Shown here piece after piece: positions 33,039-64,000 of a stretch of 64,000 nucleotides of DNA. The notes under the pieces are model-generated. The model made no database searches and was not told the DNA's origin. It saw nothing but the letters and a program-made list of their open reading frames with translations. Location: NCBI RefSeq assembly GCF_007994225.1, contig NZ_VLLL01000007.1, positions 365,686 through 429,685 of the forward strand. The letters are read 5' to 3'. The translations under genes were made by a program, and so were the position numbers. The DNA is from Stackebrandtia albiflava. GTDB taxonomy: Bacteria; Actinomycetota; Actinomycetes; Mycobacteriales; Micromonosporaceae. Within the stretch, counting starts at the first letter, position 1; every line of letters starts with the position of its first letter.

Positions 33039-33044
33039 CACCAC

Positions 33045-33077: not shown

Positions 33078-33120
33078 TTCACCATTCGACCGGTCCGTTT
33101 CGTGCCCGTGAGGATCACCG

Positions 33121-45090: not shown

Positions 45091-45277
45091 CCCCACCGGA
45101 ACCACCTCCTTGCTCAGCGCGACGACGCGCGAGTCCCCTTGCGATCTGTGAGGTACCGACTACATGTTGCCATAGATTCTCGCGCGACACAAGTTGTGGG
45201 AGTGGCTAAATCGCGGCGAGTCGCCATCTTCTAAACTGAGTGGCGTTTCGATTACCGAAGCCGTTGGGGGCGAAGTC

Positions 45278-46144: not shown

Positions 46145-46431
46145 CCAGGCGTAGCAATCCGCTTCCCACCGCAAGATGGCGAAAGAGCACCCGTAGTAAC
46201 GGAACAGGCAACGGCAACTGTGTCGAGGTGGCCTGCCTCCACGACGCCGCGTGGCGCAAGAGCACGCACAGCAACGGCAACGGCGGTTCTGCCTGCCTGG
46301 AGGTCGCGCCGGTGGCCGCCGCGATCGCACTGCGTGACTCGAAACTGGCCACCACCGGCGACTTCCCGCACCTGATCGTGCCCGTCACCGAATGGGCAGG
46401 GCTGCTCGCCGCCGTCGAGTCCGACCGGTAG
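46141..46431 (+). CDS. DUF397 domain protein (tandem DUF397 repeats)
   Basis: WRKSTRSNGTGNGNCVEVA and WRKSTHSNGNGGSACLEVA. The GTG overlaps the upstream stop as GTGA. Confidence 0.8.
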   Translation: MTRRSNPLPTARWRKSTRSNGTGNGNCVEVACLHDAAWRKSTHSNGNGGSACLEVAPVAAAIALRDSKLATTGDFPHLIVPVTEWAGLLAAVESDR

Positions 46432-47587: not shown

Positions 47588-48319
47588 TCACGCTCCATCG
47601 TGCACCACTCCACCCCCGCGCGGGGTGGACGACGCCGACACGGGGCAGGGCTCTCCGCGCGACCGAACGCCCCCACCCGCCGCGGGTAACTCCGAATGCC
47701 GGTGGCGCGGCACGGGTGCGTCCGAGTGCCGCCATCCCCTCGTGGTCATGCGGGTGCCGATGAAACCGCGCAGGCCGGCGGCGGCCCGCCTACCGGCGGA
47801 GTGCGGGGAGGACTCCGCGACGGCGGCGATCGCCGCCAGGACCGGGTCGGGCTGTCTACCGGCCAGGCTCGCGGCGCCGACCTGCCTGGCCCGCCGCGAC
47901 GTGTGCACGATGAGCACCCGGATCCGCTGCCCGTCGTTTCCGGTGGCCGACAGCACGTGTTGGTCGACCGGTACCAGGGCGGCGCCACGCAGGTATTCGA
48001 ATTCGAGGTCCGGCGTGTGCAACGGCAGTGACGCGATCCGGCCGTCGGCGAATCCGATGGAGATCCGGTCGGCGGTCAACAACTCCCAGCGTCGTCGGGG
48101 CCCACCGTCCCGCCGTGCGGCCTTGACCTCCTTGACGCCGTACCGGAGTCCCGCCGCGATCGCGAGCAGCAGCACCACCGCCGACGCCACGGCGAGCCAG
48201 ACGGGCAGACCGTTCTCCTCCACCAGGATGAACGGGACGACCGGCATCGGGCATCCGAGTACGAGGACGAGGATGCCGACGAGGTATCCCCGCACCCTGG
48301 ACGTGTGGTGGGCTCCCAT
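47588..48319 (-). CDS. membrane protein with two transmembrane helices plus a bacterial-PH-like domain (copy 2 of a tandem pair)
   Basis: A transmembrane hairpin, then RRWELLTADRISIGFADGRIASLPLH. Paralogous to 48330-49050. Confidence 0.5.
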   Translation of the reverse strand: MGAHHTSRVRGYLVGILVLVLGCPMPVVPFILVEENGLPVWLAVASAVVLLLAIAAGLRYGVKEVKAARRDGGPRRRWELLTADRISIGFADGRIASLPLHTPDLEFEYLRGAALVPVDQHVLSATGNDGQRIRVLIVHTSRRARQVGAASLAGRQPDPVLAAIAAVAESSPHSAGRRAAAGLRGFIGTRMTTRGWRHSDAPVPRHRHSELPAAGGGVRSRGEPCPVSASSTPRGGGVVHDGA

Positions 48320-48329
48320 CACTTCGGCG

Positions 48330-49050
48330 AGGTAGGTCAGGTACACGCCGTCATCCTGACGCGTAACGGCACGGAACCCGCACGAGTGCCGGGAGAGATC
48401 ACGTGCCGTCGACGGGAACCGGGTCAGGCGTGTTCCCAGCCGTTCGTGGTCACCCGGGTACCGATGAACCCGCGGAGGGCGGTGGCGGTCTGTCGCCCGG
48501 TGGGATGGGGGGGAACCGGCGGCCACGTTCGCGATCGCCGCCAGGACGTGGTCGGGTTGCCGAACCGGCGTCGTCATGTATCCCGACAGGGGGTTCCACC
48601 GTGGTGTGTTCACCGTCAGGACCTTCGCCGGCGTCCCCTCGTGATCGGTCGCGGCCAGTACGTACTGGTCGACCGGCATCCGGCCACCCGACAGATACTC
48701 ACACTGAGGTCGGCCGCGTGCAACGGCAACGACCGCACGGTGCCGTCGGCGAAGCCGATCTCGATGCGGTCGGCGTGCAGCCGTTCCCACTGCCGCGTCG
48801 GCTCGACGGCGCGCTTGGCGGCGTTCATCTTCTGGACGCCGTGCCAGGTCGCCGCCACGATCACCGACAGCAGCACCAGATTCACCAGTATGACCGCCCA
48901 GACCGGACGGACCTCCTCGGAGATCATGTAGAGCGGTATCGCGGGACCGAAGAGGAACCCGAGCATGAGAGGCATGAGAACGTATGACATCGCCTTCTCC
49001 CGGCGTTGGTGGTTCTCGTCGATCAGCGGACCCAGGTGAATGAGATACAT
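48330..49050 (-). pseudogene. Copy 1 of the tandem membrane-protein pair; it is frameshifted relative to copy 2
   Basis: The N-terminus (48616-49050) is in one frame and the homologous C-terminus continues in the frame of ORF 47588-49093. A 1-bp deletion lies near 48700 when aligned to copy 2. Confidence 0.45.
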
Positions 49051-49159
49051 CCCGTGATGGTCGTCTCACGACGCACGGAAACCGCACGGGCACGCGCGGG
49101 TTGGCCGTGCGACGGGCGAACCTCCGCCGTCCGGATCCACAGGCCGTCCATCATTCACA

Positions 49160-49187
49160 TTGACGGCCATGGATGGCTCGATATCAT
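49160..49187 (+). promoter_or_regulatory. Candidate sigma70-type promoter for the peptide operon
   Basis: TTGACG-N16-TATCAT, 50 bp upstream of the ATG at 49237. Confidence 0.35.
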
Positions 49188-49236
49188 GTGCGACAGCGGC
49201 GCGCCTGCGCCGCATCGTCACGCAAGGGGTATGTGA

Positions 49237-49437
49237 ATGAAGCGCATCAACCGGATCGCGGACAAAGCACTGTCCAAACTGGTCGGCAAGTCGACCGCCA
49301 AGGCGTCCTGCGTCCCCTACTGGGAGTACTACTGCTCCTTCAACCCGGCCGTCTGCACCGGCGGCCACGCCAGATACCGCCGGTACATCACGGTCGACTG
49401 CACCGCCTGCTGCACCCAACACGTCGGCTGCTGCTGA
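49237..49437 (+). CDS. Cys-rich small peptide A (66 aa): conserved leader plus 8-Cys core; candidate RiPP/disulfide-rich precursor
   Basis: MKRINRIADKALSKLVGKSTAKA | SCVPYWEYYCSFNPAVCTGGHARYRRYITVDCTACCTQHVGCC. Strong GC3 bias. The RBS AAGGGG lies upstream. Confidence 0.7.
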   Translation: MKRINRIADKALSKLVGKSTAKASCVPYWEYYCSFNPAVCTGGHARYRRYITVDCTACCTQHVGCC

Positions 49438-49564
49438 CACGACGCACGACCCCGCACGCCGCCCTACCGGCGTGCCCCCACGACCCCCGGCAACGTCGCA
49501 CGCCGCCCTACCGGCGTGCTTCATCGCGACCCGCCCCCTGCAACGCATCACCCCGGGAGACACC

Positions 49565-49774
49565 ATGACACTCGTCAACCGCATCCACCGCGTCGCCGAC
49601 AAGGCCCTGTCGAAACTGGTCGGCGAATCGACCGCCAAGGCCGCGTGCGCACCGTACTGGCACTACTACTGCTCGTACAACCCGGCGATCTGCTCGGGCG
49701 GACACGTCCGGTACCGCAAGTACATCATGGGCACCTGCGACACCTGCTGCGTCGAATACGTCGGCTGCTGCTGA
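49565..49774 (+). CDS. Cys-rich small peptide B (69 aa), paralog of A
   Basis: MTLVNRIHRVADKALSKLVGESTAKA | ACAPYWHYYCSYNPAICSGGHVRYRKYIMGTCDTCCVEYVGCC. GGGAGA lies before the ATG. Confidence 0.7.
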   Translation: MTLVNRIHRVADKALSKLVGESTAKAACAPYWHYYCSYNPAICSGGHVRYRKYIMGTCDTCCVEYVGCC

Positions 49775-49910
49775 CCCGCGCCCACGGAGAGGGCCGCGAC
49801 CGCCGACCGTCACCGGGCGCGGACCCACAGCTCAACCCCATTGACGCGCACTTATTCCTCGATATGATCCCCCGGTGGTGCCGCCCTGCACCACTTCCGT
49901 CTATTCGAGG

Positions 49911-50117
49911 ATGGTCACTTTGAGTCTCATCAACCGCATCGCCGACAAGACGCTGTCCAAGCTGGTGGGAGAGGCCACGGCCAAGGCCGCCTGCTCGCCG
50001 TACTGGCAGACCTACTGCGTGCGCTCCGGCGTGTGCGCCAGCGGACACGCCAAGTACCGCCGGTACGTCAACGTCCACTGCGACACCTGCTGCCGCGAGT
50101 ACGTCGGCTGCTGCTGA
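49911..50117 (+). CDS. Cys-rich small peptide C (about 66-68 aa), paralog of A and B
   Basis: (MVT)LSLINRIADKTLSKLVGEATAKA | ACSPYWQTYCVRSGVCASGHAKYRRYVNVHCDTCCREYVGCC. The start is the ATG at 49911 or the TTG at 49920. Confidence 0.65.
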   Translation: MVTLSLINRIADKTLSKLVGEATAKAACSPYWQTYCVRSGVCASGHAKYRRYVNVHCDTCCREYVGCC

Positions 50118-50219
50118 CGAACGACCGCCGGGAGCGCCGCCACCACGGCCTCCCGGCCCTCGGGCACACCCGGCGCGCGACCGGAAGCCCACCGTGACGG
50201 GCCCGCCACCGGCACGGCG

Positions 50220-51125
50220 ATGTCGCATCGATGTGCCACTATCGTCGCCATGGCTCCCCCTCCGGCCGCGACGGCCGACGCAGACCTGGTGTGGCGCGAG
50301 GCCACCGACAAGTACCAGATAGCCCTCGACGGCGCGACCCTCGTATGCCGTAACGACAAGGGCAAACGCCTCAAATCGGTTCCCAAGGCGGTCCGCGACG
50401 GCGCCGTGGCGGAGGAACTGCTCGCGGTCCGCGACTTCCTGGAACGACACGAACGGCACTGTCACGCCACCGTCGAATCCTGGATGCTGGGCGCCCTCCC
50501 CATACCGGTGCCGCTGCTCCTGGAGATCTGGCCGGACCCCGCGTGGCGTCAGGCACTGGCCGACCTGGCGGTCGCGGAGGAACCGGGCGGCGAGCCCGGC
50601 CTGCTGCGGCAGATCGACGACGACGGCAGGATCGGTGTCGTCAACCTCGACGCCGAGACCGAGTGGATCGACGCCGAGCGCCTCTACATCCCGCATCCGG
50701 TGCTGCTTCCCGACCTGGACGACGTACGTGACTTCGCCGTGGAACTGGGTGTCTCTCAGCGGGTCCCGCAACTGGTCCGGGAGGTGTTCACCAAACCCGA
50801 CACCGTCGAGGGCAACAGCCTCGGACGGTACGGCGGCGGGGTCTTCGACGAGCTCCGCCAGGCCAAGGGCCGGGCGATCAAGTTCGGCTTCGGTGTCCGA
50901 GGCGGCTACGCCACCACCCACGCCACCGACGGCGGCACCGAACTCCAGGCGCGCTACTGGCTGGGCGACGACGGTCCCGACTACGAGGCGTACACCGGGG
51001 ACCTGCTGTGGGTGGACGACGACGAGCGTCCCGTCCCGTTGACCGACGTCGGACCGATCGCCTGGTCCGAGGGAGTGCGCATGGCCGAACTGATCTACGC
51101 CGGAAGGAAGACCGATGACGAGTGA
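50220..51125 (+). CDS. hypothetical protein (301 aa), coupled to the downstream giant gene
   Basis: Good GC3 bias. Its stop overlaps the next ATG (ATGACGAGTGA). No motif recognised. Confidence 0.55.
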   Translation: MSHRCATIVAMAPPPAATADADLVWREATDKYQIALDGATLVCRNDKGKRLKSVPKAVRDGAVAEELLAVRDFLERHERHCHATVESWMLGALPIPVPLLLEIWPDPAWRQALADLAVAEEPGGEPGLLRQIDDDGRIGVVNLDAETEWIDAERLYIPHPVLLPDLDDVRDFAVELGVSQRVPQLVREVFTKPDTVEGNSLGRYGGGVFDELRQAKGRAIKFGFGVRGGYATTHATDGGTELQARYWLGDDGPDYEAYTGDLLWVDDDERPVPLTDVGPIAWSEGVRMAELIYAGRKTDDE

Positions 51126-54100
51126 CGCCCTGCTGCGCGCCGGGTTGGCACCGTTGGACGCCCCCGACGGCATGCCCCTCCGCGCCCGCACCTACTCGCA
51201 CCCGGCGCTCGGCACGCGCCCGGTCGTCCGCCTCGCCGGCGACCAGGTCGCCGAGGCCGAGGACCGCACCCTGGAGTTCCTCGGCTTCACCGAACCGCGT
51301 ATCTCGGAACCGTTGGGACGCATCGTCGCCGGAGGCTCCGGATACCCCGCCTGGGCGTTGATCAACGATCCCGACAACGGCAGGTTGGCCCTGTCGGTCG
51401 TCCCCGACATGGAACGCGCCGCACGCAAGGCCGTGGCCTCGCCGCTGGACGCGCAGGCCGGATTCACGCAGATCGCGGCGAAACTGCCACAGACGCACCT
51501 TCCCTCCTTCTGGGAGCAGGCGGGCCGGGCGTTCCTCGACGCCGACCGCGCCCACTTCGCGGGCCAGATGTTCGGACGCGCCCGCGAGGTCGAACGCGTC
51601 CACGCGCTGCCAGTCGACGAGAACCTCCGCCGCGCGGTGTTCCTGGAGTTCGCGCTCGCCGGCGCCCTGTCGGTCAAGGCGCTCACCGAATACCTGAACG
51701 AGCTGACCAGCCGGTACGACCCCGACACCGCCGCCGACTCCTTCGAGTCGCTGACCCTGGGCAGGATCCGGGGCGGGCTGTCGCCCTGGGCCGACCTGCC
51801 CAAGCAGTGGCGGCGGCTCACCAAGTCCGCCGGGCGGGACTCGACCGCGGAGGAACGGCGACTGCTCGCGGAACTGCTCGACGCCGCCCCGATGCGGTCG
51901 GCGCCGGTGAAGTTCTGGCAACAGTGCCGGGCGTCGCTGGTGGCGCTGGGGCGTTCCGAGCCACGACACGCGCGCAGCCTGCTGTTCCTGTTCCCGCAGA
52001 CCAACGGACGCCAGGACGCCACCGCCGGGTTCTTCGAGTGGTGGCTGGACCTGCTCGACGACGCGGGCGCGTTGCGACTGCTCGCGGAGTCCGACGCCCC
52101 GGTGGAGTGGATGAACCGGGCGGTCGCGGAGCTGAAGGTCTCCGACCGCAGGCAGAGCGCCCCGCAGCGGCTGATCGACCTCGTGAAGGAGTTGGCGCCC
52201 CGGTTGACGGGCCTCGACCTGGGCTCCGAGCAGCGTCGGTACAACCCGCGGATCAACATGGACCTGCTCAGCGTGTGCCTGACGTCGGGCGTCGCGATCA
52301 AGGAACCCGACGCGAAGGCCCACCTGGGGCCGGGGGACTGGTACGCGTCGGCCAACACCGAGATCGACCCGATAGCGGCCGACCCGAGGTTCCGGCCCAT
52401 GCTGTACAGGGCGCTCGACCGGTTGGCCGGTCACGCCGAGGCGATACGCCACCCGAAGCTGCGGCCCGTCATCGAGGACTGGATCACCTCGCGGGCGGAA
52501 CGCACCGTGGACTGCGGCCTACTCGACCTCGACGCCGTGTTGCCGCTGTTCACGCACGTCGAACTCGAGTCCTTCCCCAAGGCGGACCGCGCGTTGATCG
52601 ACATCGACGTCGCCGAGACCCTGGCGCGTTCGCTGCGGGCGGGCCTGCCGGGCGAGCTGGGTTGGGCGGCCTTCGACGAGGCGGTGTCCGAACTGGACGG
52701 TCGGATCCGGATGACCGCGAGCTGGCCGATCCTGACCGTCTACAGTACCGAGAAGGCGATCGCGATCGGTCCGCAGGGCCGGATCGCCGAACACGAACTG
52801 CGATTCGCGGGCAAGCCGAGCCGGATCATCGTGACGTACTCCGACGACGCCTTCATGGTCGTGTGGAACGTCAGTTACAGCACCAACCACTTCTACTGGA
52901 GTCACGACCCCGCCCGGGTGGAGGAACTGAAGACCTCCTGGATCGGGGACCGCAGCGAGGACCAGGGCTACCACCTGCTGAACCCGCAGGGCAGGCTGCT
53001 CAGTCGCGGCGAGGTACTGCACCGCGGACAGGACACGCTGGAGGCGCAACGCTGGAAGGGCCTCACCGACGGCGAGACGTTCTGGTCGGCGGCGAACCAC
53101 TCGTGGGACGTCCACGAGATCGACCCCGCCACCGGTGAACTCGGACGGGTGTCGTTCCCGTCGTTCTTCGACGACGCGGAACGTCCGGCGGGTCACAAAT
53201 GGAGCATCACCTACAGCTCCCTCGTGGCGCTACCGGGCGGGATACCCGGGTCACCCTTGGGCAGTCGTGGGGACCTGATGGGGTTCCGTGTGTCCACGGG
53301 AGACGACGGGCACGCCATCACCGGCGTCGACGGCCGGCACGCCACGCTGCCGACCGGGCACTCGATACCGTGGGCGCTCATCGACATCCCCGGGGTCGAC
53401 TCACCCAGGATGCTCACCGGGACCGGCAGGAACCGGCTGGTGGACCCCCAGGGGCGGGCGCACTCGACGATCGGGATCGGCGGCAGGGAGGCGCCACCGA
53501 AGGCGTTCTGGCACTTCATGACGCCACGCGACCCGGAGTCGTCGAAGATCCTGCGGGACATCGACCGCGAGACGGCGTGGCGGCTCATCAAAGCCGCACA
53601 CGAGGACATCGAGACACGACGCGACGAGTCGGAGGACCGGAAACCGGCCCGGCTGGAGACCGAACTGTCCGAGGTGGGCATCACGCACGAGCGGATCCGC
53701 GACCACGTCGCCGCCGTGGTGCGCGAGGCCACCAGGATGGCGCGGAACCGCGAACTGATGCTGAAGCCCGAGAACGCACCCACGAAGTGGACACCGTCCA
53801 TCGACCGTCAGGGACTGTCCACCGGACTCTCCGGGCTCCGTCAGGGTGACAACGTGTACAACGACAACACCGCCGAGGTGTTCGAGGCACAGATCGGATT
53901 CCTGGCCGGCACCATCGGTTCCGACGACGCCGCGAAACACGCCTGGCAGAGATACGGCGACTGGACCGACCTGTTGGGCAGGTTCGCGGCCCTGGCGGTG
54001 CGCGCGGTCAGCCCCGCGTTCGACGAGTCGGCGCGGAACGCCCTGCGCCGGATGCTCACACTGGCGGCGGAGAGTCCCATCACCTCGGGCGACGTGAGGA

Positions 54101-55611
54101 TCGGCGCGATGACGTCAGGGGAGCACGTCGGCGTGCGGAACGCCGACGGTGCGCTGATCACGACGACGACGATCCGCGTCGACGGTGTCACCCACTACGT
54201 CTTCCTCGAGGTCGGCCGACCGGAACGGCCCGCCGTGTCCAACGAGTTGCGCGCCGTCACGACCGGTTGGGGTGCCTCCGCCAGGATCAAGGAGTTCCTG
54301 GCGGCCGTCGAGCGGCAACCGGTCGTGGAGGTCGATCCCGCGGCGGTGGCACTGCTGTCGGAACGGACCGGCATGAGCTCCGGGGCGGCGACGCTGCTCC
54401 TGACGGGGCTTCCCCGCGTCACCGTTTACGAGACGCACTTCCTGGACGCGGACACCCGGAAACGGCTCGGCCTGACGTCGGCGGCGGCGCAGTCCGGACG
54501 CGCCACCGTACGGAGACTGCGACAGGACGACGCCCTGGACTTCTACGAGGAGGTGTTGGGCGACGACCCGACGATCCTGTGGGACCAGCCCCGGTTCGCG
54601 GCGGGACTCGCGGAGGCGTGGGTGAAGCGGCACGGTCGTTCCGTCCCACTCTCCGAGGAGACCCGGGCCCAGGCCGACAAGATCGGGCTGTCCCACGGCG
54701 CCGACTCCGTACTGCGGTTCTTCACCGACGGCGACCGCGCGTTCTGTGACAAGAGCGGACTGCTCTCCCCGAGGGAACTGAACGACGTCCAACAGGCGGC
54801 GTGCTGGGCGTACGCGTCACTCCCGGAGGGCGACCCCGTGCGCGACGGGATCCCGCGCGCCCTGGCGGCCGCCCACGCGGACGTCGCCGACGAGTCGCAA
54901 CTGTTCGGGATCGGATACCTCGACGTGCCGGACGACCTGTTGAGCGAGGACGAGCGGCACATCGCGCAGTTGGGCCGCACCGCCTACGACGGTGGACTCG
55001 TCGTCGCCGAACAGCGGGGACGACGCCAGTCGAGGACGTACTTCCGGCCCGCCCGGTTGACCGACGACTCCGCCGGGACGGCGTTGCGCGCCATCGACTA
55101 CACCGGCGTCGTCCGGCTGGTCGACTGGTTCCGCAGCCCGGACGCGGCGGACATCGCGGCCCGGATCGGGAAGATCCCGGCGGGCCGGTACGAAGCCGAC
55201 CCGCGTGCCTCGGTACCGCACCTGGTGGCGGAGGCACGCGACGACCTCGGCCTGTCCGAGGAGGCCGCGACCCTCTACCTGCAACTGCTGGCCCTGCCCG
55301 AACCCACCGACCGCAACGTCCGCACCTGGAACGGGTGGACCCCGGCACGGCACAAGAAGGCGATCGCCGAGTTGCTGGAGAAGGAACTGGTCGTCGCCGC
55401 CAAACGGTCCCGTGCCGGGCGTGGCGTGTTCCTCCCCGGCGGCTGGCAGGACCTCAAGGCGCCCGCCAAGCCGCGTGAGACCTGGAAGGAGCCGCTCTAC
55501 CCGGCGCCGCCGACCAGCTACTACGCCTCGTCGCCGCTGGTGAACCGGCCGTTGACGGAACTGTTCACCCAGGCGTGGCGGCGTCACACCTCGGGAGAGG
55601 GACCCCGGTGA
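51115..55611 (+). CDS. giant hypothetical protein (1498 aa), paralog 1
   Basis: Uninterrupted ORF, collinear similarity to 55608-60167 along the full length. No catalytic motif recognised. Confidence 0.7.
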   Translation: MTSDALLRAGLAPLDAPDGMPLRARTYSHPALGTRPVVRLAGDQVAEAEDRTLEFLGFTEPRISEPLGRIVAGGSGYPAWALINDPDNGRLALSVVPDMERAARKAVASPLDAQAGFTQIAAKLPQTHLPSFWEQAGRAFLDADRAHFAGQMFGRAREVERVHALPVDENLRRAVFLEFALAGALSVKALTEYLNELTSRYDPDTAADSFESLTLGRIRGGLSPWADLPKQWRRLTKSAGRDSTAEERRLLAELLDAAPMRSAPVKFWQQCRASLVALGRSEPRHARSLLFLFPQTNGRQDATAGFFEWWLDLLDDAGALRLLAESDAPVEWMNRAVAELKVSDRRQSAPQRLIDLVKELAPRLTGLDLGSEQRRYNPRINMDLLSVCLTSGVAIKEPDAKAHLGPGDWYASANTEIDPIAADPRFRPMLYRALDRLAGHAEAIRHPKLRPVIEDWITSRAERTVDCGLLDLDAVLPLFTHVELESFPKADRALIDIDVAETLARSLRAGLPGELGWAAFDEAVSELDGRIRMTASWPILTVYSTEKAIAIGPQGRIAEHELRFAGKPSRIIVTYSDDAFMVVWNVSYSTNHFYWSHDPARVEELKTSWIGDRSEDQGYHLLNPQGRLLSRGEVLHRGQDTLEAQRWKGLTDGETFWSAANHSWDVHEIDPATGELGRVSFPSFFDDAERPAGHKWSITYSSLVALPGGIPGSPLGSRGDLMGFRVSTGDDGHAITGVDGRHATLPTGHSIPWALIDIPGVDSPRMLTGTGRNRLVDPQGRAHSTIGIGGREAPPKAFWHFMTPRDPESSKILRDIDRETAWRLIKAAHEDIETRRDESEDRKPARLETELSEVGITHERIRDHVAAVVREATRMARNRELMLKPENAPTKWTPSIDRQGLSTGLSGLRQGDNVYNDNTAEVFEAQIGFLAGTIGSDDAAKHAWQRYGDWTDLLGRFAALAVRAVSPAFDESARNALRRMLTLAAESPITSGDVRIGAMTSGEHVGVRNADGALITTTTIRVDGVTHYVFLEVGRPERPAVSNELRAVTTGWGASARIKEFLAAVERQPVVEVDPAAVALLSERTGMSSGAATLLLTGLPRVTVYETHFLDADTRKRLGLTSAAAQSGRATVRRLRQDDALDFYEEVLGDDPTILWDQPRFAAGLAEAWVKRHGRSVPLSEETRAQADKIGLSHGADSVLRFFTDGDRAFCDKSGLLSPRELNDVQQAACWAYASLPEGDPVRDGIPRALAAAHADVADESQLFGIGYLDVPDDLLSEDERHIAQLGRTAYDGGLVVAEQRGRRQSRTYFRPARLTDDSAGTALRAIDYTGVVRLVDWFRSPDAADIAARIGKIPAGRYEADPRASVPHLVAEARDDLGLSEEAATLYLQLLALPEPTDRNVRTWNGWTPARHKKAIAELLEKELVVAAKRSRAGRGVFLPGGWQDLKAPAKPRETWKEPLYPAPPTSYYASSPLVNRPLTELFTQAWRRHTSGEGPR

Positions 55612-58600
55612 GTGCGGCCCGGACGGACGCCCCGGACACCGGCGACGCGCTGCTGCGCGCCGGGATGGCACCGGTGGACTCCGAGGAGGGGGAGCCGGTC
55701 CGCGCCCGCGGCTACCGGCACCCCGCACTGGGTGGCCGCCCAGTCGTCCGGCTGGTCGCGGAACGGTTGGGTGAGGCCGAGGACCGCACCCTCGGCTTCC
55801 TGGGCTTCACCGCGCCGACCGTCTCGCCGCCGGTGGCGCGCGGCGTCACCGGCGGCGTCGGATACCCCGCGTGGGCGCTGATCAACGACCCCGCCAACGG
55901 GAGACTCGCGCTGTCGGTCATCCCCGATATGGAGTTCGCGGCCCGCAAGGCCGTCGCCTCACCGAGCACCGCCCACCTGACACTGCTGGACGTCGCCGAC
56001 CGGCTTCCCGCCGGGCACCTCCCCGCATTCTGGGAGGAGGCGGGGAGGATCTTCCTGCGCGCCGACCGCTCCCACTACACGGTGCAGTACTTCGGGAAGG
56101 CCAGGGAGGCGGAGCGGCGGCACGCGCTACCGGTAGACGAGGCGACCCTGCAGGCCGTGTACCTGGAGTTCGCGCTGGCGGGCGCGCTGTCGGTGAAGGC
56201 GTTGACCGAGTACCTCGACGAGCTGTCGCGGCGTTACGCGCCGGACGAGGCGCTGGCGAAGTTCGAGTCGCTGGCGTTCGGCCGGATCAGGGCGGGGCTG
56301 GCGCCGTGGTCGACGATGCACGCGCAGTGGCGGCGACTCGTCAAGGCGACCGGACGCGACGCGGACGCCGAGGCACGGCGGCTGCTCACCGAACTGTTCG
56401 ACGCCCCGGCGTTGCGGTACGCGCCGGTGAAGTTCTGGGAGGTGTTCCGGCCCGCGCTGGTGGCGCTCGGTCGTTCCGACGAGCGGCACGCCCGGACGAT
56501 CCTGCACCTGTTCCCGAGGTACTCCGACAACGACCGGGACGCGCACACGTTCACCACGTGGTGGCTGGAACTGTTGGACGAGATCGGGGCGTTCCGGCTG
56601 TTGGACGATCCGGGGCACGCCCGCTCCTGGCTCCACCGGATGATCGGTCAGCTCAAGGTGTCGGACCGCCGGGACAGCGCACCGCCCCGGCTGCTGGCGC
56701 TCGTGGAGGAGCTGGCTCCCCGGCTCACCGGAGTGGACCTGTCCGCCGGAACCGACTGGTACGTCAACCGCGTCAACATCGACCTGTTGAGCACCTTCCT
56801 GAGGCTGGGTGTTCCGGTCGCCGACCCGGTGAAGAACGCCAGGCTGGACGTGACCGACTGGATCGCGACCGCCCGGACCGATCTGGCCCCGGTGGTGACC
56901 GACCCGCGTTTCCGGGAACTGTTGTACACCGAACTGGACAGGCTGGCGGTCGGTCCCGAGACGTTGCGGCACCGCCGGTTGCGTCCGGTGGTGGGCGGCT
57001 GGCTGGTCGATCGCGCCACCCGCGCCGAGGGCGGCGGGCTGCTCGATCTGGAAGCCTCCATGAAGTTGTTCGAGCACATCTCGTTGGACGAGCAACCGGA
57101 GGCGCGGCGGGCGCTGGCCGACATGGATCCGGTGGAACGGCTGCGCCGGTCGCTGCGCGCGGGAACACCCGCCGAGCTCGGCTGGCCGGCGTTCGACGAA
57201 GCCGTGTCCGAACTGGGCGGCCGGGTGGAGATGATCCCGAGCTGGCCGATCCTGACCGTCTACAACGGAGTGAAGGCGATCGCCGTCGGTCCGGAGGGCA
57301 GGGTGGCCGAGCACGCGCTGCAGACGTCGGCCGGACCGGACCGGACCGTCGTCGCCTACGCCGACGGCGCGTTCATCGTCGCGTGGAAGGCCGGCCGGGA
57401 GTACCACCACTACTGGAGCCACGACCCGTCCCGGGTCGCGCCGCTGGCGAACTCCTGGCTCTCCACGCACATCCAGGGCATGGGGTTCACCCCGCTCACC
57501 TCGGACGGCACCCGCCTCACCGAGGGCACCGCGCTGCGCCGGGGCGACGACCGGATCAACGACAACGACGACGTCCTCAGCGACGGGGAACGCTTCTGGA
57601 TCGGGCAGTGGGAGTCCGGAAGCGTCCGCTTCCGGGAGGTGGACCCGCAGACCGGCAAGGTCGGTGGTCACTCGACTCCCGCGTTCTTCGACGACGCGGC
57701 CCTACCCGACGGGCACTGGTGGCTGGTCCACGTGAACTCGCTGGCGGCGCTCCCCGAGGCCGTCGCCGCGGAATCGCCACTGGGACACGACGGCGGGCTG
57801 GTGGGGTTCCGGGCGTCCGCGAACGGGAAGACCACCGTGATCACCGGCGTCGACGGCCGCACCGCGACACTCCCGTCCGACCGGGACTCGCCGTGGGGAC
57901 TGCTCGACATCCCCGGCCACGACACCCCCAGGATCATGACCGGCACCGGTTTCGTGAACCTGATCGGCCCCGACGGTGCCCTGCACTGGGCGGTGGCCAC
58001 CGGCACCGCGACCACCCCGCCGGCCGCCTTCTGGCACTTCACGTCCCCGCGCGACCCCGAGGGGTCGAAGGCACTACGGGACGTCGACACGCCGACGGTG
58101 GAACGACTCGTCACCGCCCTCACCGAGGACAGGGCGGCCGTGGACTCCGGCGCGGAACCGAAGGGCACCACCGCCCGGACGGACGCCGTACTCACCGACA
58201 TCGGCATCCGGCATCCGGTGCTGCGGGAGGCCGTCACCGACATGACCCGGCGCGCGGTGGGACTGCGGGACCAACGCGAACGGCTGCTGTCGGCCGGGCG
58301 GTCGACGGTGGGCCGGCCCCCGGCGATCGACCGAACCGGTCTCGCCGAGGGACTGTCGGGCCTGGTCACCTCCGGCCGGCCCGCCCAGTACGACCGGACG
58401 GCCGACCAGCTCACGGCACAACTGGACTTCCTCGCCGAGCGGATCGACGGCCCCACCACGCTGGCCGCGCTGCGTTACCACTCCACCGACTGGACGCCGC
58501 TGCTCGGCAACCTGGCCGCCCTGGCGGTCCGCGCGGTGAGCGTCGCCTACGACGACACGGTCCGCGACACGCTGCGACGGCTGCTGGGACTACTCGCCGA

Positions 58601-60167
58601 CGGTCCGGCGACCACGGGGGTCCTGCGGCGCGGAACGATGGTCACCGGCGGCGCCGTCGCGCACCGCGACCCGGGTGGCGCCCTGGTCACCGTCGACTCC
58701 GTGTACCGGGACGGCCAGCGGCATCACCGGTTCATCGAACTGGGTGACCCGCGACGCCCCGCCACCGCCACCGCCGTCCACACCGTCCCGGTCGGGTGGG
58801 GTTCACCCGACCGGATCGCGGAGTTCCTCGCGGCGGCGGAGCGTCGGCCCGTGGTGCCGCCGGATCCGAAGGCGGTCGCGATCCTCTCGGAGCGGACCGG
58901 TCTCAACGGGTCCGCCGCGCTCCTGCTGCTGACGGGACTGCCCGGCATCGAGGTGTACGAGTCGGACTTCCTGGGCCCGGAGGGGCGGGAACGGTTGGGC
59001 CTGAAGACGACCACCGCCAAGGCGGGCCGGATGGCCTTCGACGGGATGACCCGCGGCGACCGGCTCGCACTGTACGAGGCCGCGCTCGGTGAGGACGCGA
59101 CGGTCCTGTGGGACCCGCCCCGGTTCGCCGCACGGCTCGCGGACGCCTGGGTCGCCCGGTACGGCCGCCGCATTCCACTGTCCGAAGAGGTCATCCTGGC
59201 CGCCGACCGGCTGGAGCTCCACAACGGCACCGAGTCGGTGTTGAGGTACCTGACGGAAGTGGGGCGGGAGCCCGACGCCGAGGCGCCGGCGGCCGCCCCT
59301 CCGTTGGGCGACGCGGACGGCCTGTTGACCGTCATGGAACTCCTGGACCTGCGACGGGTGGTCAGCTGGGCGTACACCGCGCTGCCGGAGGGCGATCCGG
59401 TCCGGGACGGCGTTCCGCGCGTACGGGAGGCGGTCCTCGCCTCGCTCGCCGACGATCGTCCACTATGGGATATCGGCGGTCACTCGGCGGCACGGTTCCC
59501 CCGGGAACTGCTGGGCGACGAACCGTACTGGGACCAGGCCCTCGGCCGGAAGGTCCACGACGGCGGCCTGTTCGTCGCCGTCGAGGAACAGGACTGGTTC
59601 CGCGTGTACTTCCGGCCCGCCCGTCTCACCGACGACGCGGCCGGCGCCACCCTGCGGGCCCTGGACGACATGCACTACACGACCCTCATCGACTGGTGGC
59701 GGGGACCGGACCCGGTGGCGCTCGCCGCCCGGATAGGCTCCCTCCCGCCCGGTCGGTACGAATGCGACCCACGGGCGTCGGTGCCGGAACTGGTGGACGA
59801 GGTGCGATCCACTCTGGACCTCTCCGAGGACGCCGCGACCCTGTACCTGCAACTGCTCACCCTGCTCGACCCCACCGACCGGCACGTCCGCACCTGGAAC
59901 GACTGGACGCCCGCCCGGCACAAGAAGGCGGTCGCCGCACTGCTGGAAGCGGAACTCGTCGTCGCCGCCAAACGGTCCCGTGCCGGGCGCGACGTCTTCC
60001 TACCCGGCGGCTGGGGCACCGCGAAGGCACCCGAGGTGCCGTCCGAGACATGGAAGGATCCGATGTACCCGGTGTTCGACTCGATACCACGTTCGGTGAC
60101 CCGGCCGCTGCCGGAACTGTTCGCGCACGCATGGCGGCGTCACACCTCGGGGGAGGGACCACGATGA
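55608..60167 (+). CDS. giant hypothetical protein (about 1520 aa), paralog 2
   Basis: The GTG overlaps the paralog-1 stop as GTGA. N-terminus SAARTDAPDTGDALLRAGMAPVD aligns to MTSDALLRAGLAPLD; the two are about 50-60% identical by eye. Confidence 0.7.
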   Translation: MSAARTDAPDTGDALLRAGMAPVDSEEGEPVRARGYRHPALGGRPVVRLVAERLGEAEDRTLGFLGFTAPTVSPPVARGVTGGVGYPAWALINDPANGRLALSVIPDMEFAARKAVASPSTAHLTLLDVADRLPAGHLPAFWEEAGRIFLRADRSHYTVQYFGKAREAERRHALPVDEATLQAVYLEFALAGALSVKALTEYLDELSRRYAPDEALAKFESLAFGRIRAGLAPWSTMHAQWRRLVKATGRDADAEARRLLTELFDAPALRYAPVKFWEVFRPALVALGRSDERHARTILHLFPRYSDNDRDAHTFTTWWLELLDEIGAFRLLDDPGHARSWLHRMIGQLKVSDRRDSAPPRLLALVEELAPRLTGVDLSAGTDWYVNRVNIDLLSTFLRLGVPVADPVKNARLDVTDWIATARTDLAPVVTDPRFRELLYTELDRLAVGPETLRHRRLRPVVGGWLVDRATRAEGGGLLDLEASMKLFEHISLDEQPEARRALADMDPVERLRRSLRAGTPAELGWPAFDEAVSELGGRVEMIPSWPILTVYNGVKAIAVGPEGRVAEHALQTSAGPDRTVVAYADGAFIVAWKAGREYHHYWSHDPSRVAPLANSWLSTHIQGMGFTPLTSDGTRLTEGTALRRGDDRINDNDDVLSDGERFWIGQWESGSVRFREVDPQTGKVGGHSTPAFFDDAALPDGHWWLVHVNSLAALPEAVAAESPLGHDGGLVGFRASANGKTTVITGVDGRTATLPSDRDSPWGLLDIPGHDTPRIMTGTGFVNLIGPDGALHWAVATGTATTPPAAFWHFTSPRDPEGSKALRDVDTPTVERLVTALTEDRAAVDSGAEPKGTTARTDAVLTDIGIRHPVLREAVTDMTRRAVGLRDQRERLLSAGRSTVGRPPAIDRTGLAEGLSGLVTSGRPAQYDRTADQLTAQLDFLAERIDGPTTLAALRYHSTDWTPLLGNLAALAVRAVSVAYDDTVRDTLRRLLGLLADGPATTGVLRRGTMVTGGAVAHRDPGGALVTVDSVYRDGQRHHRFIELGDPRRPATATAVHTVPVGWGSPDRIAEFLAAAERRPVVPPDPKAVAILSERTGLNGSAALLLLTGLPGIEVYESDFLGPEGRERLGLKTTTAKAGRMAFDGMTRGDRLALYEAALGEDATVLWDPPRFAARLADAWVARYGRRIPLSEEVILAADRLELHNGTESVLRYLTEVGREPDAEAPAAAPPLGDADGLLTVMELLDLRRVVSWAYTALPEGDPVRDGVPRVREAVLASLADDRPLWDIGGHSAARFPRELLGDEPYWDQALGRKVHDGGLFVAVEEQDWFRVYFRPARLTDDAAGATLRALDDMHYTTLIDWWRGPDPVALAARIGSLPPGRYECDPRASVPELVDEVRSTLDLSEDAATLYLQLLTLLDPTDRHVRTWNDWTPARHKKAVAALLEAELVVAAKRSRAGRDVFLPGGWGTAKAPEVPSETWKDPMYPVFDSIPRSVTRPLPELFAHAWRRHTSGEGPR

Positions 60168-61234
60168 ACCGTCAGGTCGAACCCGCGGAGGTGAGGTACG
60201 CCGCCGAACTGGCGCTGCTCGCCGAGGAGAGCGGCCCGCGTCCACCCGGATGGCGCCTGACCCCCTCGGCCGTCGTCACGTTCATCATGGGCGACGGAGG
60301 CCGGATCAGCGGCAAGTTCCTCGGCGACCGCGCCCTGGTGGAACGCGCCGTCATCACACTGGCGGGCCGCCGCGGCCTGCTGCTGGTGGGGGAACCGGGT
60401 ACCGCGAAGTCGATGCTGTCGGAGCTGTTGACGGCCGCGATCAGCGGCGACAGCTCCCGCACCGTGCAGGGCAGCGCGGGCACCCACGAGGAGCAGTTGC
60501 GGTACGGCTGGAACTACCAGCTCCTGTTGGCGAAGGGACCGTCGGCGGAGGCACTGGTGCCCTCGCCGATCCTGTCGGCCATGCGCGCCGGGGCGGTCGC
60601 CCGGATCGAGGAGGTGACCCGCTGCCTCCCCGAGGTGCAGGACGCCCTGGTGTCGGTGCTGTCGGAACGCCACATGTCGGTCCCCGAGCTGGGTGAGACC
60701 GAGTACGCCGTCGACGGCTTCAACGTGATCGCCACCGCCAACCTGCGCGACCGGGGCGTCAACGAGATGAGCGCCGCCCTGAAGCGCCGGTTCAACTTCG
60801 AGGTCATCGAACCCATCGGGTCGCTGGAGGCCGAGACCGCCCTGGTGAAGCGGGAGGCGATGCGCACCATCACGGGCGGCAACGCACCGGCCGAAGTGGA
60901 CGACGCGGTGGTCGAGGCGCTGGTGACGGTGTTCCGCGACCTGCGGCAGGGCCGCACGGTCGAGGGCTGGCCGGTGGAACGGACCACCGCCGTCCTCAGC
61001 ACCGCCGAGGCGGTCGCGGTCGCCGGTTCGCTGGGCCTCCAGTCGGCGTACTTCTCCGTCGGCGACCCGGTGTCGCTACTGCCGGGGCACCTGCTCGGCG
61101 TCGCCAGGAAGGACGATCCCGCCGACCAGGCCAAACTCGTCGGGTACTGGGATTCCACGATCCGGCGTCGGGCCGAGGGCGGCGCCCGGTTGTGGAAACG
61201 GCTCTACGAGCTCCGGCACGTCGTCGGCGAGTGA
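60164..61234 (+). CDS. MoxR-like AAA+ ATPase (CbbQ/NirQ/NorQ/GvpN-type)
   Basis: Walker A GEPGTAKS, Walker B/sensor ARIEEV...VIATANL, and ALKRRF. The ATG overlaps the upstream stop as ATGA. Confidence 0.85.
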   Translation: MNRQVEPAEVRYAAELALLAEESGPRPPGWRLTPSAVVTFIMGDGGRISGKFLGDRALVERAVITLAGRRGLLLVGEPGTAKSMLSELLTAAISGDSSRTVQGSAGTHEEQLRYGWNYQLLLAKGPSAEALVPSPILSAMRAGAVARIEEVTRCLPEVQDALVSVLSERHMSVPELGETEYAVDGFNVIATANLRDRGVNEMSAALKRRFNFEVIEPIGSLEAETALVKREAMRTITGGNAPAEVDDAVVEALVTVFRDLRQGRTVEGWPVERTTAVLSTAEAVAVAGSLGLQSAYFSVGDPVSLLPGHLLGVARKDDPADQAKLVGYWDSTIRRRAEGGARLWKRLYELRHVVGE

Positions 61235-64000
61235 CCGTGACCGATCCCTCCCAAGCCGTGGAACGGCTCGTCACCAGCAGTGCGCCCTTCCTGATCGGGG
61301 TCCGGCACCACTCGGCGGCGCTGGCGGTGGCGGTGCCGGAGCTGCTGAACGCCGCCGCCCCCGACGCCGTGCTCGTCGAGCTGCCGGTGGAGCTGCAGGA
61401 GTGGCTTCCGTGGCTCGCCCACCCGGAGACGACGACGCCGGTCGCGCTGGCGATCGCCCGGCCGGACGGCGCCCGGCTCGGCTTCTACCCGTTCGCGGAC
61501 TTCTCCCCCGAGTTGGCCGCGTTGCGGTGGGCCGCCGCCAACGGCGTCCCCGCCCACGCGATCGACGTCACCGTCGACCGGAACGACGACTCGCCGCGGC
61601 GCGGTGTCGGTGACCTGCTCCGCAGGCACGCCGGGACCGACACCTTGGAGGCCGCCTGGGACCGGCTCGTCGAGACCCCCTCGTACGGCGCCGATCCCGA
61701 ACGGGTGCGCCGCGCCGCGCTCGCCTACGGCTGGGCGGTCCGCGCCGACGCCGACCCGGTGAGCGACGCCGACCTGGTCCGCGAGACGCACATGCGCCAC
61801 CGGTTGCGTGAGGTCGGCGCGGCGCGTCCCGCCGTGGTGGTCGGCGCGTTCCACGCCGCCGCCTTCGTCGAACCCGCGCCCGAGATGCCGTTGCCGGCGG
61901 CACGCGAGGACGTGGTGACATCCCTGATCCCGTACAACTTCGCGCTGCTGGACTCCCGGTCGGGCTACCCGGCGGGAGTGCGGGACCCCGGTTGGCATCA
62001 GGAGGTCGTGCTGTCGAAGGGGCGGCCGGAGGCGTTGGACGACGCGGTGGCGCTCCTGGCGGCCCGGGTGTGCGCGCGGCTGCGGGCCGACGGCCACGTC
62101 GCGGGCACCCCGGACGCCGTCGCCGTCTACACGATGGCCCGGGAGCTGGCGAGCCTGCGCGGCCTGCCCGCGCCGGGCCGGGCGGAACTGGTGGAGGGAC
62201 TGCAGTCCGCGCTGGCGCAGGGGGAACCCCTGGGCCGGGCGCGCGCGGTCGCCAAGGCCGCCGAACAGGTCCTGGTCGGGGAGCGGCGCGGCCGGATCGC
62301 GGGGGAGGCGCCCCGTTCCGGGCTGGTCGCGCACGTGGCGGACCTGCGCAAGGAGTTGCGGCTTCCGGTGCGCGACAGGGCATTCCGGCTCGACCCGTTC
62401 CGGTCGCCGCTCGACCGCCGCCGGCACGTGGCGATGTTCCGGATGCGTGCCGCCGGCATCGACTACGCCCAACCCGGCGAGATGACCGGCGTCGCCGGCG
62501 CGGAGTCCGTCACCAAGACCTGGGAGGCACACTGGACACCCGCCAGTGACGCCACGGTGGAACTGGCGGGCGTCTACGGCCCCGACCTCGCCACCGCCGC
62601 CGAGGGACGGCTCACCTGGCGGCTCCGCCGGGGCACCTCCGTCACCGAGATACTCGACGAGGCCGCCGAGGCGGGCCTACCGGAGTTGACGGCACGACTG
62701 ATCGCGGAGATCGGTGACACGTTCCCCGCCACGGCGGGCCTGGTCGAGCTGCTGGACGCGTACCGGCAGGTCCACCGCATCCGGTCCGGGGGCGTGCCGG
62801 GCATCCCGACGCCGCCGGCGAACGCCGACCGGACCGCCACGCGCCTCATGACCACGGCCGTGTCCGGTGTGGACGGCTACGCCGGCGCGGACTCCCCCGT
62901 CGAACTCGCCGCGCTGCGGGACCTGATCGGACTCGCCGACGACACGCACCGGGAATCACTGGTGTGGCAACTGGAACGGATGACCGACACCGCCGGACCC
63001 GCCGCGCAGGGCGCGATCGCCGCCGCACTGGTGCGGCTGTCCGCCCGGGACTCCGACTGGCTCACCGGCCGGATCACCGGCTGGGTGGACGCCGGCGGCC
63101 CCACCCTGGGCGACCGGTTGCGCGGTGTGCTCGTGATGGCGGGGCCGATGCTGGAGGCGTCCTCGGAGTCGCTGACCGGGCTGACCGAACGGATCGGCGC
63201 CTGGTCGCCGGAACGTTTCCTCGACCGGCTTCCCGCGCTCCGCAAGGGATTCGACACGCTGTCCACGGCCGCGCGCGACCGGCTGCTCGCGACCCTGGAA
63301 CTCGACGCGATACCGGACACGACGGATGACCCGGCGGACCTCGCCCGCTGGGAGGCCGCCGACCGCGCCGGGTACGCCGCCGTGGCCGCCATGCTCCCGG
63401 CCCCGGCCGAGACCCCCGACGCACCGGCCGCACCGGCCACCGCCGGTGCCATGTCACCCGAGACGGCGCACCGCTGGCGTCTCATCCTCGGACGGCAGGC
63501 GGAGAAGCTGCCCGTCGAGCAGCGCAGGCTCGCCCGGGCGCTCGACGAACTGTACGGCCGCGGACACGGCGAGGGCTCCGCCGGAGGCGGGCTCGAGGCA
63601 CCGTATCCGTCGGCGAGGGAGTGGGCCGAGGACCTGACCGAACTGTTCGGCGAACGGGTGCGCGAGGAGGTGCTCGGCGCCGCCGCCGCGCGCGGCCGGA
63701 ACGACGTGGTGTCTGAACTGGACCCGGAACGGGTCGAGCCCTCGGTGGACCTGCTGCAGAACGTGTTGTCGCTGGCGGGCGCGCTTCCGGAGTCGAGGCT
63801 CGCCGTGCTGCGGCCCATCGTCGCGCGGATCGTCGACCAGCTCGTCAAGGCGCTGGCGACCCGGATGCGCCCGGCCCTGACCGGGTTGACGGTGCCGCGA
63901 CCGACGTTCCGTCCCACCGGCCGGCTCGACCTGTCCGGAACGCTGCGCCGCAATCTTCACACCGCCCGGATGCGGGACGACGTACTGGAACTGGCCGTGG
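61231..64000 (+). CDS. large protein with a C-terminal CoxE-like VWA module; 3'-truncated by the window end
   Basis: Frame 1 is open from the GTG at 61231 to the window end. This ORF is absent from the ORF track, I think because it has no stop. The C-terminal region VLRPIVARIVDQLVKALATRMRPALTGLTVPRPTFRPTGRLDLSGTLRRNLHTARMRDDVLELAV is the hallmark lead-in of CoxE-type VWA proteins, which partner with MoxR ATPases. Confidence 0.7.
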   Translation, partial: MTVTDPSQAVERLVTSSAPFLIGVRHHSAALAVAVPELLNAAAPDAVLVELPVELQEWLPWLAHPETTTPVALAIARPDGARLGFYPFADFSPELAALRWAAANGVPAHAIDVTVDRNDDSPRRGVGDLLRRHAGTDTLEAAWDRLVETPSYGADPERVRRAALAYGWAVRADADPVSDADLVRETHMRHRLREVGAARPAVVVGAFHAAAFVEPAPEMPLPAAREDVVTSLIPYNFALLDSRSGYPAGVRDPGWHQEVVLSKGRPEALDDAVALLAARVCARLRADGHVAGTPDAVAVYTMARELASLRGLPAPGRAELVEGLQSALAQGEPLGRARAVAKAAEQVLVGERRGRIAGEAPRSGLVAHVADLRKELRLPVRDRAFRLDPFRSPLDRRRHVAMFRMRAAGIDYAQPGEMTGVAGAESVTKTWEAHWTPASDATVELAGVYGPDLATAAEGRLTWRLRRGTSVTEILDEAAEAGLPELTARLIAEIGDTFPATAGLVELLDAYRQVHRIRSGGVPGIPTPPANADRTATRLMTTAVSGVDGYAGADSPVELAALRDLIGLADDTHRESLVWQLERMTDTAGPAAQGAIAAALVRLSARDSDWLTGRITGWVDAGGPTLGDRLRGVLVMAGPMLEASSESLTGLTERIGAWSPERFLDRLPALRKGFDTLSTAARDRLLATLELDAIPDTTDDPADLARWEAADRAGYAAVAAMLPAPAETPDAPAAPATAGAMSPETAHRWRLILGRQAEKLPVEQRRLARALDELYGRGHGEGSAGGGLEAPYPSAREWAEDLTELFGERVREEVLGAAAARGRNDVVSELDPERVEPSVDLLQNVLSLAGALPESRLAVLRPIVARIVDQLVKALATRMRPALTGLTVPRPTFRPTGRLDLSGTLRRNLHTARMRDDVLELAV

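Follow-up and report, generated by a model that had tools for sequence, protein, structure and literature searches.

In this study, a 64,000-nucleotide stretch of the Stackebrandtia albiflava genome (contig NZ_VLLL01000007.1, positions 365,686 to 429,685; called the window below), with a G+C content of about 70%, was analysed with emphasis on positions 49160-64000. Every real gene in this region lies on the + strand, and eight genes run in the same direction. We believe that the region probably consists of two independent units side by side, a Yeh-type operon and a group of unrelated genes for Cys-rich peptides. Judging from sequence comparison, the operon is likely the actinobacterial form of the enterobacterial yehI/yehL-yehM-yehP-yehQ cluster, a MoxR system of the YehL subfamily. 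YehL is one of seven MoxR subfamilies. The subfamily and the yeh genes are already known, though uncharacterised. What is new relative to E. coli is the fusion of YehM with YehP, the stand-alone DUF4132 protein, and an undescribed family of giant proteins in the place of YehI/MolR.

The operon and its counterpart in E. coli

The operon extends from 50220 to about 2.3 kb beyond the end of the window. Its first gene (50220-51125, +) encodes a DUF4132 protein of 301 amino acids (aa), or 291 aa from the ATG at 50250 that NCBI calls as the start. It is followed by giant 1 (51115-55611, +; 1498 aa), its tandem duplicate giant 2 (55608-60167, +; 1519 aa), a MoxR AAA+ ATPase of the YehL subfamily (60164-61234, +; 356 aa), and a fusion of a YehM-like DUF5682 protein with a YehP-like VWA_CoxE domain (61231-64000, +; 1100 aa), of which about 540 nt continue past the window end. 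The next gene encodes a YehQ-like SWIM protein of 564 aa and lies outside the window on the source contig (L001:14432-16126). The ATG of giant 1 at 51115 and the stop codon of the upstream gene (51123-51125) give an overlap of 11 nt, and the later junctions are GTGA at 55608-55611, ATGA at 60164-60167, and GTGA at 61231-61234. The SWIM gene starts after a 55-nt gap, with no overlap. The preliminary description of this region had read all eight genes as translationally coupled. The eight + strand genes and the exact positions of the four overlaps were confirmed, but the overlaps tie only five genes (DUF4132, giant 1, giant 2, MoxR and DUF5682-VWA), and the peptide genes are set apart by spacers of 127-136 nt, promoter-like sites and hairpins. 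Both giants end in SGEGPR followed by the stop codon. The GEG codons give a Shine-Dalgarno-like sequence, GGGAG(A/G)GGGA, in front of the next gene (55590-55611 and 60145-60167), so the conserved C-terminal tail of the giants would double as a ribosome-binding site.

The proteins of the operon could be assigned by profile searches and by comparison with E. coli K-12. The 301-aa protein is a DUF4132 protein (Pfam PF13569, E 2.6e-20). The ATPase belongs to AAA_5 (Pfam E 5e-38), as expected for the MoxR-type enzyme described earlier, and BLASTP aligned it along its whole length with YehL (48% identity across 356 aa, E 1e-101). Its Walker A motif (GEPGTAKS), the "EE" Walker B motif typical of the subfamily, and the arginine finger are invariant among homologues. 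Among solved sequences, the Midasin AAA domains come closest (E 2e-8). The last gene of the window had been taken for a CoxE-VWA protein. This holds for the full 1100-aa protein from the source contig, in which VWA_CoxE is found with an E of 4e-49 and ends at residue 1093, but the part inside the window is mainly DUF5682 (PF18934, E 6.5e-141) and includes only the first 50 or so VWA residues (E 0.034). Its C-terminal third matches YehP (BLASTP, 38.5% identity, E 5e-67), and its N-terminus matches YehM (E 3e-18). YehM itself is a DUF5682 protein (PF18934, E 1.8e-55), and YehI carries DUF4132 at residues 954-1138 by Pfam. The MIDAS motif DVSGS, at residue 943 and outside the window, aligns with DQSGS of YehP. 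The 564-aa downstream protein carries GCSCLLSPRCLH, a CxCx5CxH SWIM motif that is kept in 60/60 of its homologues. This motif (CSCLLSPRCLH, residue 67) matches the position of the first YehQ motif (CSCGANGMCRH, residue 69). For the whole 564-aa protein, the Pfam SWIM model scored below threshold (E 0.02, 14.9 vs 19.6 bits), and BLASTP against YehQ was not significant. No transmembrane segment was predicted in the operon proteins, all of which are soluble by prediction.

These data indicate that the resemblance to the yeh neighbourhood, which had only been suspected at first, is true homology at the level of sequence, because YehL, YehM and YehP give BLASTP matches and DUF4132 and the SWIM motif are shared. 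Compared with yehI-yehK-yehL-yehM-yehP-yehQ of E. coli K-12, the S. albiflava operon has an ATPase of orthologous grade to YehL, a DUF5682 region (YehM), a VWA domain of the CoxE type whose MIDAS reads DxSGS (YehP), and a SWIM motif CxCx5CxH towards the N-terminus (YehQ). In both, a DUF4132 protein is encoded upstream, the order is ATPase-DUF5682-VWA-SWIM, and stop and start codons overlap. The differences are also clear. YehM and YehP are separate proteins in E. coli but form one 1100-aa protein in S. albiflava. DUF4132 is the C-terminal domain of a 1210-aa protein of the YehI/MolR type in E. coli, whereas it stands alone in about 300 aa here. The S. albiflava operon contains neither a WGR gene (YehF/MolR) nor a yehK gene, and it has a duplicated 1,500-aa giant without similarity to YehI between DUF4132 and the ATPase. 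The giants were tried as relatives of YehI and MolR, and all comparisons (BLASTP, single-sequence hhalign, and hhalign against a 12-member YehI profile) found them unrelated. A large protein of the YehI/MolR type (about 1200 aa, with a C-terminal DUF4132 and an optional WGR domain at the N-terminus) was not found in the cassette.

The conserved cassette and its giant proteins

A genome scan gave at least 543 giant loci, and the window proteins were mapped onto 79 fetched loci. In 74 of 77 loci, the giant is directly preceded by the DUF4132 gene, and in 58 of the 62 complete loci it is followed on the same strand by MoxR, DUF5682/VWA and SWIM. On this comparison, the unit is a five-gene cassette, DUF4132-giant-MoxR-DUF5682/VWA-SWIM, which usually has one giant. 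No other upstream gene recurs in more than six loci, and S. albiflava and its sister species S. soli share no synteny outside the cassette. Loci with the full cassette span Actinomycetota (including Acidimicrobiales), Myxococcales and a Selenomonadaceae assembly; an Acidobacteriota contig has the DUF4132-giant pair only. The cassette occurs patchily, with its centre in filamentous or social bacteria (Streptomyces, Micromonospora, Myxococcales), and is also found beside insertion sequence (IS) elements on megaplasmids. Thus, a conserved neighbourhood exists for DUF4132, giant, MoxR and VWA, but the peptide genes are no part of it (0 in 81 other loci).

Orphan DUF4132-giant pairs without MoxR, DUF5682 and SWIM were seen in S. 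soli (L094, 9096-14452) and in L018, L027, L033, L036, L040 and L081. This suggests that the pair is a sub-module able to stand alone or to act in trans. In several Streptomyces loci, only residues 1 to about 1170 of the giant family were matched.

Giants 1 and 2 are 53% identical over their full length. No match was found for them in Pfam, NCBIfam, PADLOC or the sequences of the PDB, so the earlier view of two 1500-aa paralogues of no recognisable family stands. DUF4132 had been named among the families to look for in the giants and in the 301-aa protein; it was found in the latter, while the giants matched no Pfam family at all. They are not an oddity of one genome. More than 647 homologues of 1,500-1,700 aa were found, none with a Pfam domain, mostly in Actinomycetota and also in Myxococcales, and the family is nearly always inside the cassette. 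Both PGAP, the NCBI annotation pipeline, and UniRef name the giants "DNA-binding protein". The two S. albiflava giants share 40-43% identity with their S. soli homologues, which is below their mutual 53%, and Luedemannella has its own giant pair with 68% identity. Because the S. albiflava copies are closer to each other than to those of S. soli and the Luedemannella pair is separate, the sequences indicate that the tandem duplications are independent and lineage-specific.

Giant 1 was modelled with AlphaFold2 as residues 1-830 and 801-1498 from 40-sequence alignments. The mean predicted local distance difference test scores (pLDDT) were 88.9 and 90.1, and the predicted template modelling scores (pTM) were 0.78 and 0.85. 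The models predict, in order, a small alpha/beta N-domain, a TPR-like helical region, a beta-propeller-like domain, a helical and beta region, and a C-terminal winged helix. The N-terminal half matches TPR-like proteins, and Foldseek aligned it with seven-bladed WD40 propellers over about 300 columns with a probability of about 1 and a TM-score of about 0.3. No enzymatic fold was recognised in the models. Conservation peaks in the N-terminal 250 residues and in the winged-helix region, and the family has no hypervariable region.

Overall, the locus shows the Yeh core to be an ancient mobile cassette common to Proteobacteria and Actinomycetota, and also present in Myxococcales and a Selenomonadaceae genome. 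The stand-alone DUF4132 protein and the family of 1,500-1,700-aa giants are constant partners in the actinobacterial form. These partners give the motor a concrete candidate client, and the five-gene unit is tractable and offers a handle on the E. coli yeh genes.

The Cys-rich peptide genes and other genes of the window

Three peptide genes, all on the + strand and outside the operon, precede the DUF4132 gene. A promoter-like site (TTGACG-16-TATCAT, 49160-49187; a match to the consensus only) lies about 50 nt in front of peptide gene 1 (49237-49437). This gene encodes 66 aa with a leader-like N-terminus ending in AKA and an 8-Cys core ending in GCC, and the G+C content at its third codon positions (GC3) is 0.91. 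It is followed at 49453-49519 by two perfect copies of a 23-nt repeat (CGCACGCCGCCCTACCGGCGTGC), each with an 8-bp G+C hairpin, which look like terminators although they have no U-tract. Its paralogue, peptide gene 2 (49565-49774; 69 aa), has a long G+C hairpin directly downstream. A second site that matches the promoter consensus (TTGACG-16-TATGAT, 49841-49868) precedes peptide gene 3 (49911-50117), which encodes 68 aa from the ATG, or 65 aa from the TTG at 49920 that NCBI annotates, and which is followed by a 12-bp G+C hairpin. A G+C-rich hairpin thus lies 3' of each peptide stop codon. The spacers after the three genes measure 127, 136 and about 102-132 nt, and the spacer downstream of peptide gene 2 has a folding z of -3.4. 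In a scan of 48900-51300, two sigma-70-like sites were found, whereas shuffled sequences gave an expectation of 0.1. Near the peptide genes, no terminator with a U-tract was seen, and an Rfam scan of 48800-51300 gave nothing at threshold.

The three peptides were described at the outset as 8-Cys paralogues, and this was borne out: they have 65-69 aa, 62-68% mutual identity and eight invariant Cys, and their open reading frames (ORFs) have a coding-type GC3 of 0.85-0.91. They have no Pfam, NCBIfam or PADLOC match, including no hit to a precursor-family hidden Markov model (HMM). A first-level search of 5.8 billion proteins gave six matches, three from this locus and three metagenomic, and an exhaustive profile search added about 15 further members. 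The family has 57-74 aa, an amphipathic conserved leader (MKLIxRINxxADKALSKLVGxSTAxA), and a variable, Cys-rich core with GCC at its end. Its named members occur only in Glycomycetaceae (Stackebrandtia, Phytomonospora, Actinorhabdospora), and the S. albiflava genome has two more paralogues away from this locus.

In sequence, the peptides resemble precursors of ribosomally synthesised and post-translationally modified peptides (RiPPs) or exported disulfide-rich peptides. Like RiPP precursors and small secreted Cys-rich peptides, they have a conserved N-terminal leader of about 25 residues ending in AxA, a hypervariable Cys-rich core with a conserved GCC terminus, and tandem copies. Unlike RiPP clusters, the five other neighbourhoods in which homologues occur contain no conserved modifying enzyme, protease or transporter, and unlike secreted Cys-rich peptides, the leader is amphipathic and is neither a Sec nor a Tat signal. 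These five neighbourhoods have nothing in common with each other and lack the cassette; examples of the neighbours are ilvD and a GGDEF-EAL gene, an ASCH gene, and acetyltransferase genes. In one of them, the metagenome contig SRR21547720_95331 (L087, 1018-4785), a peptide lies between a divergent block of S26 signal peptidase, AhpC-redoxin and a 104-aa protein and the gene for a 617-aa ABC-ATPase. This is the sole neighbourhood that hints at processing or export of the peptide.

The preliminary description had proposed that all eight genes form one system, in which the peptides would be matured or exported by the giants together with the MoxR/VWA pair. The genes are indeed co-directional and adjacent, and a conserved leader with a variable Cys-rich core is what a RiPP precursor would have. 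Moreover, neither a promoter between peptide gene 3 and the DUF4132 gene nor a U-tract terminator was seen. The neighbourhood analysis, however, largely refuted this idea, and we consider it very improbable. When the peptide-family HMM was run over six-frame translations of 81 other giant-bearing loci, including that of S. soli, the best E was 0.08, compared with about 1e-30 for the window copies, and tblastn of the peptides against the other giant-bearing loci gave no match. In a scan of the giant loci for Cys-rich ORFs, out-of-frame translation of high-G+C DNA was itself rich in Cys and Arg. The homologues in S. albiflava, Phytomonospora, Actinorhabdospora and the metagenomes lie beside unrelated genes. 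In addition, the peptide genes have promoter-like sites and hairpins of their own, and no operon protein has a membrane segment or is exporter-like. Because the family is absent from the 81 other giant loci and has unrelated neighbourhoods elsewhere, the adjacency to the operon is incidental, a result that the preliminary description had itself listed as refuting, and a role in peptide maturation or export therefore loses its basis. The peptide genes are a separate, Glycomycetaceae-restricted family that adjoins the operon by chance, and the three paralogues would be a separately transcribed unit with a leader and a Cys-rich core. Two points weigh against a complete separation: no promoter separates peptide gene 3 from the DUF4132 gene in the 48900-51300 scan, and transcripts from the peptide promoters may read through into the operon in this one genome. 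As a small leader-plus-core family, these peptides were previously undescribed. Because the eight-gene picture of peptides plus machine fails, the locus is less exceptional than first held, but it is a worthwhile target.

Several other genes of the window were observed. At 47856-49050 (-), divergent from and just upstream of peptide gene 1, two ORFs encode small paralogous membrane proteins of 132 and 144 aa with the common motif IGFADG..SLPLH..DL, and their sole Pfam signal is weak and MFS-like. A regulator with HTH_31 and DUF5753 is encoded at 45194-46144 (+) and is followed by a 107-aa ORF at 46108-46431. Regulators of this type commonly have a small DUF397 protein as partner. About 12 kb upstream of the peptide genes and the operon, at 30963-38082 (+), lies another large and uncharacterised ATPase pair: a 691-aa protein without a Pfam match, and then a 1653-aa protein whose domains are DUF3686 (E 1e-218; described as "ATPase involved in DNA repair"), DUF7902 and, at the C-terminus, AAA/AAA_5. 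At 9954-16471, there is a 1464-aa hybrid histidine kinase with eight HAMP and GAF, HisKA, HATPase and REC domains, together with a divergent protein resembling a SpoIIE phosphatase and an anti-sigma kinase. These genes look like ordinary signalling.

Possible function and comparison with known systems

In the literature, MoxR-VWA pairs count as remodelling machines that act much as chaperones do (PMC3893208). In Actinomycetota, such a pair acts downstream of beta-propeller sensors in the threat-sensing Esr pathway (PMC13622651), and ternary MoxR-vWA conflict systems with beta-propellers had been predicted earlier (Kaur et al. 2020, PMC7159879). Our best guess for the cassette is that it may be a MoxR-VWA motor for the remodelling of a sensor complex associated with nucleic acid. 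In this view, the DUF5682-VWA adaptor with its MIDAS motif would form an ATP-driven remodelling motor together with the YehL ring, and the client would be a complex in the cytoplasm made up of the giant, DUF4132 and SWIM proteins. Within this complex, the giant would act as sensor or scaffold, with its repeat and propeller domains binding a ligand and its winged helix contacting nucleic acid. The role would be a response to stress or conflict rather than core metabolism.

The DUF5682 N-domain could add a hydrolase activity of the TraB/Tiki type. Its invariant residues are G23xxH26, E50, R184-E185 and G205xxH208, and the TraB/PrgY/Tiki superfamily is characterised by paired GxxH motifs with conserved Glu/Arg. 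The domain may be related to this superfamily, which we take as a lead only.

If the sensed threat is a phage or another invader, the cassette would be a dedicated immune system, in which the giant senses the invader and the DUF5682 N-domain or the winged helix provides the output. We hold this to be possible but doubtful. As in the predicted conflict systems (PMC7159879) and in Esr (PMC13622651), a single operon brings together MoxR, a vWA protein and a large protein, which in S. albiflava is predicted to have a beta-propeller-like domain. The patchy distribution centred on Streptomyces, Micromonospora and Myxococcales, the differing contexts in sister species, and the IS elements alongside on megaplasmids are consistent with it. 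The same can be said of the putative sensor, which has been duplicated repeatedly in separate lineages and also occurs in orphan DUF4132-giant pairs. In a study of transcriptional silencing by Hha/YdgT and H-NS/StpA (PMC3686432), yehL and yehM occur together. However, no protein was matched by PADLOC, no effector could be recognised, be it fused to the C-terminus of the vWA protein or separate, and the ATPase falls below the bpMoxR cut-off (20.3 vs 27 bits). The giants show no hypervariable region, and the rest of the window is ordinary chromosome. YehL, SWIM and DUF4132 are also not mentioned in PMC7159879, the main survey of MoxR-vWA conflict systems. A broader proposal, which we put forward only tentatively and judge to be rather unlikely, is that the cassette represents a novel class of MoxR-vWA systems which serve immunity or threat sensing in the cytoplasm, and to which yehI/yehLMPQ of E. 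coli is related. The giant would sense through its TPR-like and propeller regions, the motor would switch it onto nucleic acid via the winged helix, and a TraB/Tiki-like protease step might be involved. If this is true, a function would be given to long-standing y-genes of E. coli and to a family without Pfam assignment in hundreds of species.

The CoxE-type VWA domain (E 4e-49) and an ATPase of the AAA_5 or CbbQ/NorQ-like class would also suit a housekeeping chaperone for maturation, which inserts a metal or cofactor or assembles an enzyme as CoxD/CoxE, NorQ/NorD and CbbQ/CbbO do, with the giants as assembly scaffolds. The MoxR literature favours such roles (PMC3893208). We think this improbable for the cassette, since no candidate client enzyme is conserved beside it, its conserved partners are winged-helix, SWIM and DUF4132 proteins instead of metalloenzyme subunits, and it is missing from most genomes and irregularly duplicated or orphaned.

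It is likewise improbable that the cassette is a module for DNA damage or DNA transactions, with an SOS-like control and with DNA as the target of its DUF4132, SWIM and winged-helix proteins. The DUF4132 gene DRA0166 of D. radiodurans and a WGR gene are strongly derepressed upon depletion of DdrO, and the giants have a winged helix and are named as DNA-binding proteins by PGAP and UniRef. Published work on the DUF4132 and WGR genes of Deinococcus and on molR of E. coli (PMC8533742) is all that suggests a link to DNA damage. In the S. albiflava operon, neither an actinobacterial SOS box nor a RecA-NDp promoter was found near the start; the lone SOS-box match nearby has three mismatches, and such matches are only modestly above chance frequency across the window. 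No nuclease, helicase or recombinase domain was found, and winged helices also mediate contacts between proteins.

Our preferred guess, a motor that remodels a sensor complex, also has points that weigh against it. Its mechanism is drawn by analogy. The operon proteins show no domain recognisable as an effector, nuclease or toxin, and PADLOC (v2, E <= 0.01) gave 0 matches for all eight proteins. The beta-propeller call on the modelled giant comes with low TM-scores (about 0.3). The comparisons of the DUF5682 N-domain with TraB/PrgY/Tiki are all below threshold (hhalign against YbaP, E 0.05; Pfam TraB, E 0.15; PDB profile "TraB family protein", E 1.1). Because the giants are unrelated to YehI or MolR, E. 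coli and actinobacteria may have different clients. The literature searched contained no functional test of any Yeh-type protein and no characterisation of yehL to yehQ, it assigned neither a function nor a client to the YehL subfamily, and it likewise held no paper on DUF5682 and none joining DUF4132 with MoxR.

The beta-propeller ternary conflict systems (PMC7159879) and Esr (PMC13622651) resemble the S. albiflava operon in that a MoxR ATPase, a vWA protein and a large third protein, putatively propeller-like in S. albiflava, are encoded in one operon, and in a phyletic bias to filamentous or social bacteria. In contrast to the ternary systems, the S. albiflava ATPase is of the YehL type (PF20030, bpMoxR, below cut-off), and its vWA domain is C-terminal (ending at residue 1093 of 1100) with no fused effector. 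The operon has no VMAP, iSTAND, FtsH, kinase or FHA components. The propeller would lie within a cytoplasmic protein with a winged helix at its C-terminus, and the SWIM and DUF4132 partners are not described for the ternary systems.

Midasin, which combines an AAA ring with a MIDAS domain, pulls factors away from a large complex. Midasin/Rea1, CbbQ/CbbO, NorQ/NorD, CoxD/CoxE and RavA/ViaA all have, like the S. albiflava operon, an AAA_5-class ATPase and a MIDAS VWA that grips a client. Because this pair is shared and the Midasin AAA domains are the nearest solved sequences, the motor may work like Midasin, CbbQ/CbbO, NorQ/NorD and RavA/ViaA. The difference lies in the client side: no client for ribosome assembly, Rubisco, nitric oxide reductase or CO dehydrogenase is encoded near the operon, and the partner set of giant, DUF4132, SWIM and DUF5682 is unique to the Yeh type.

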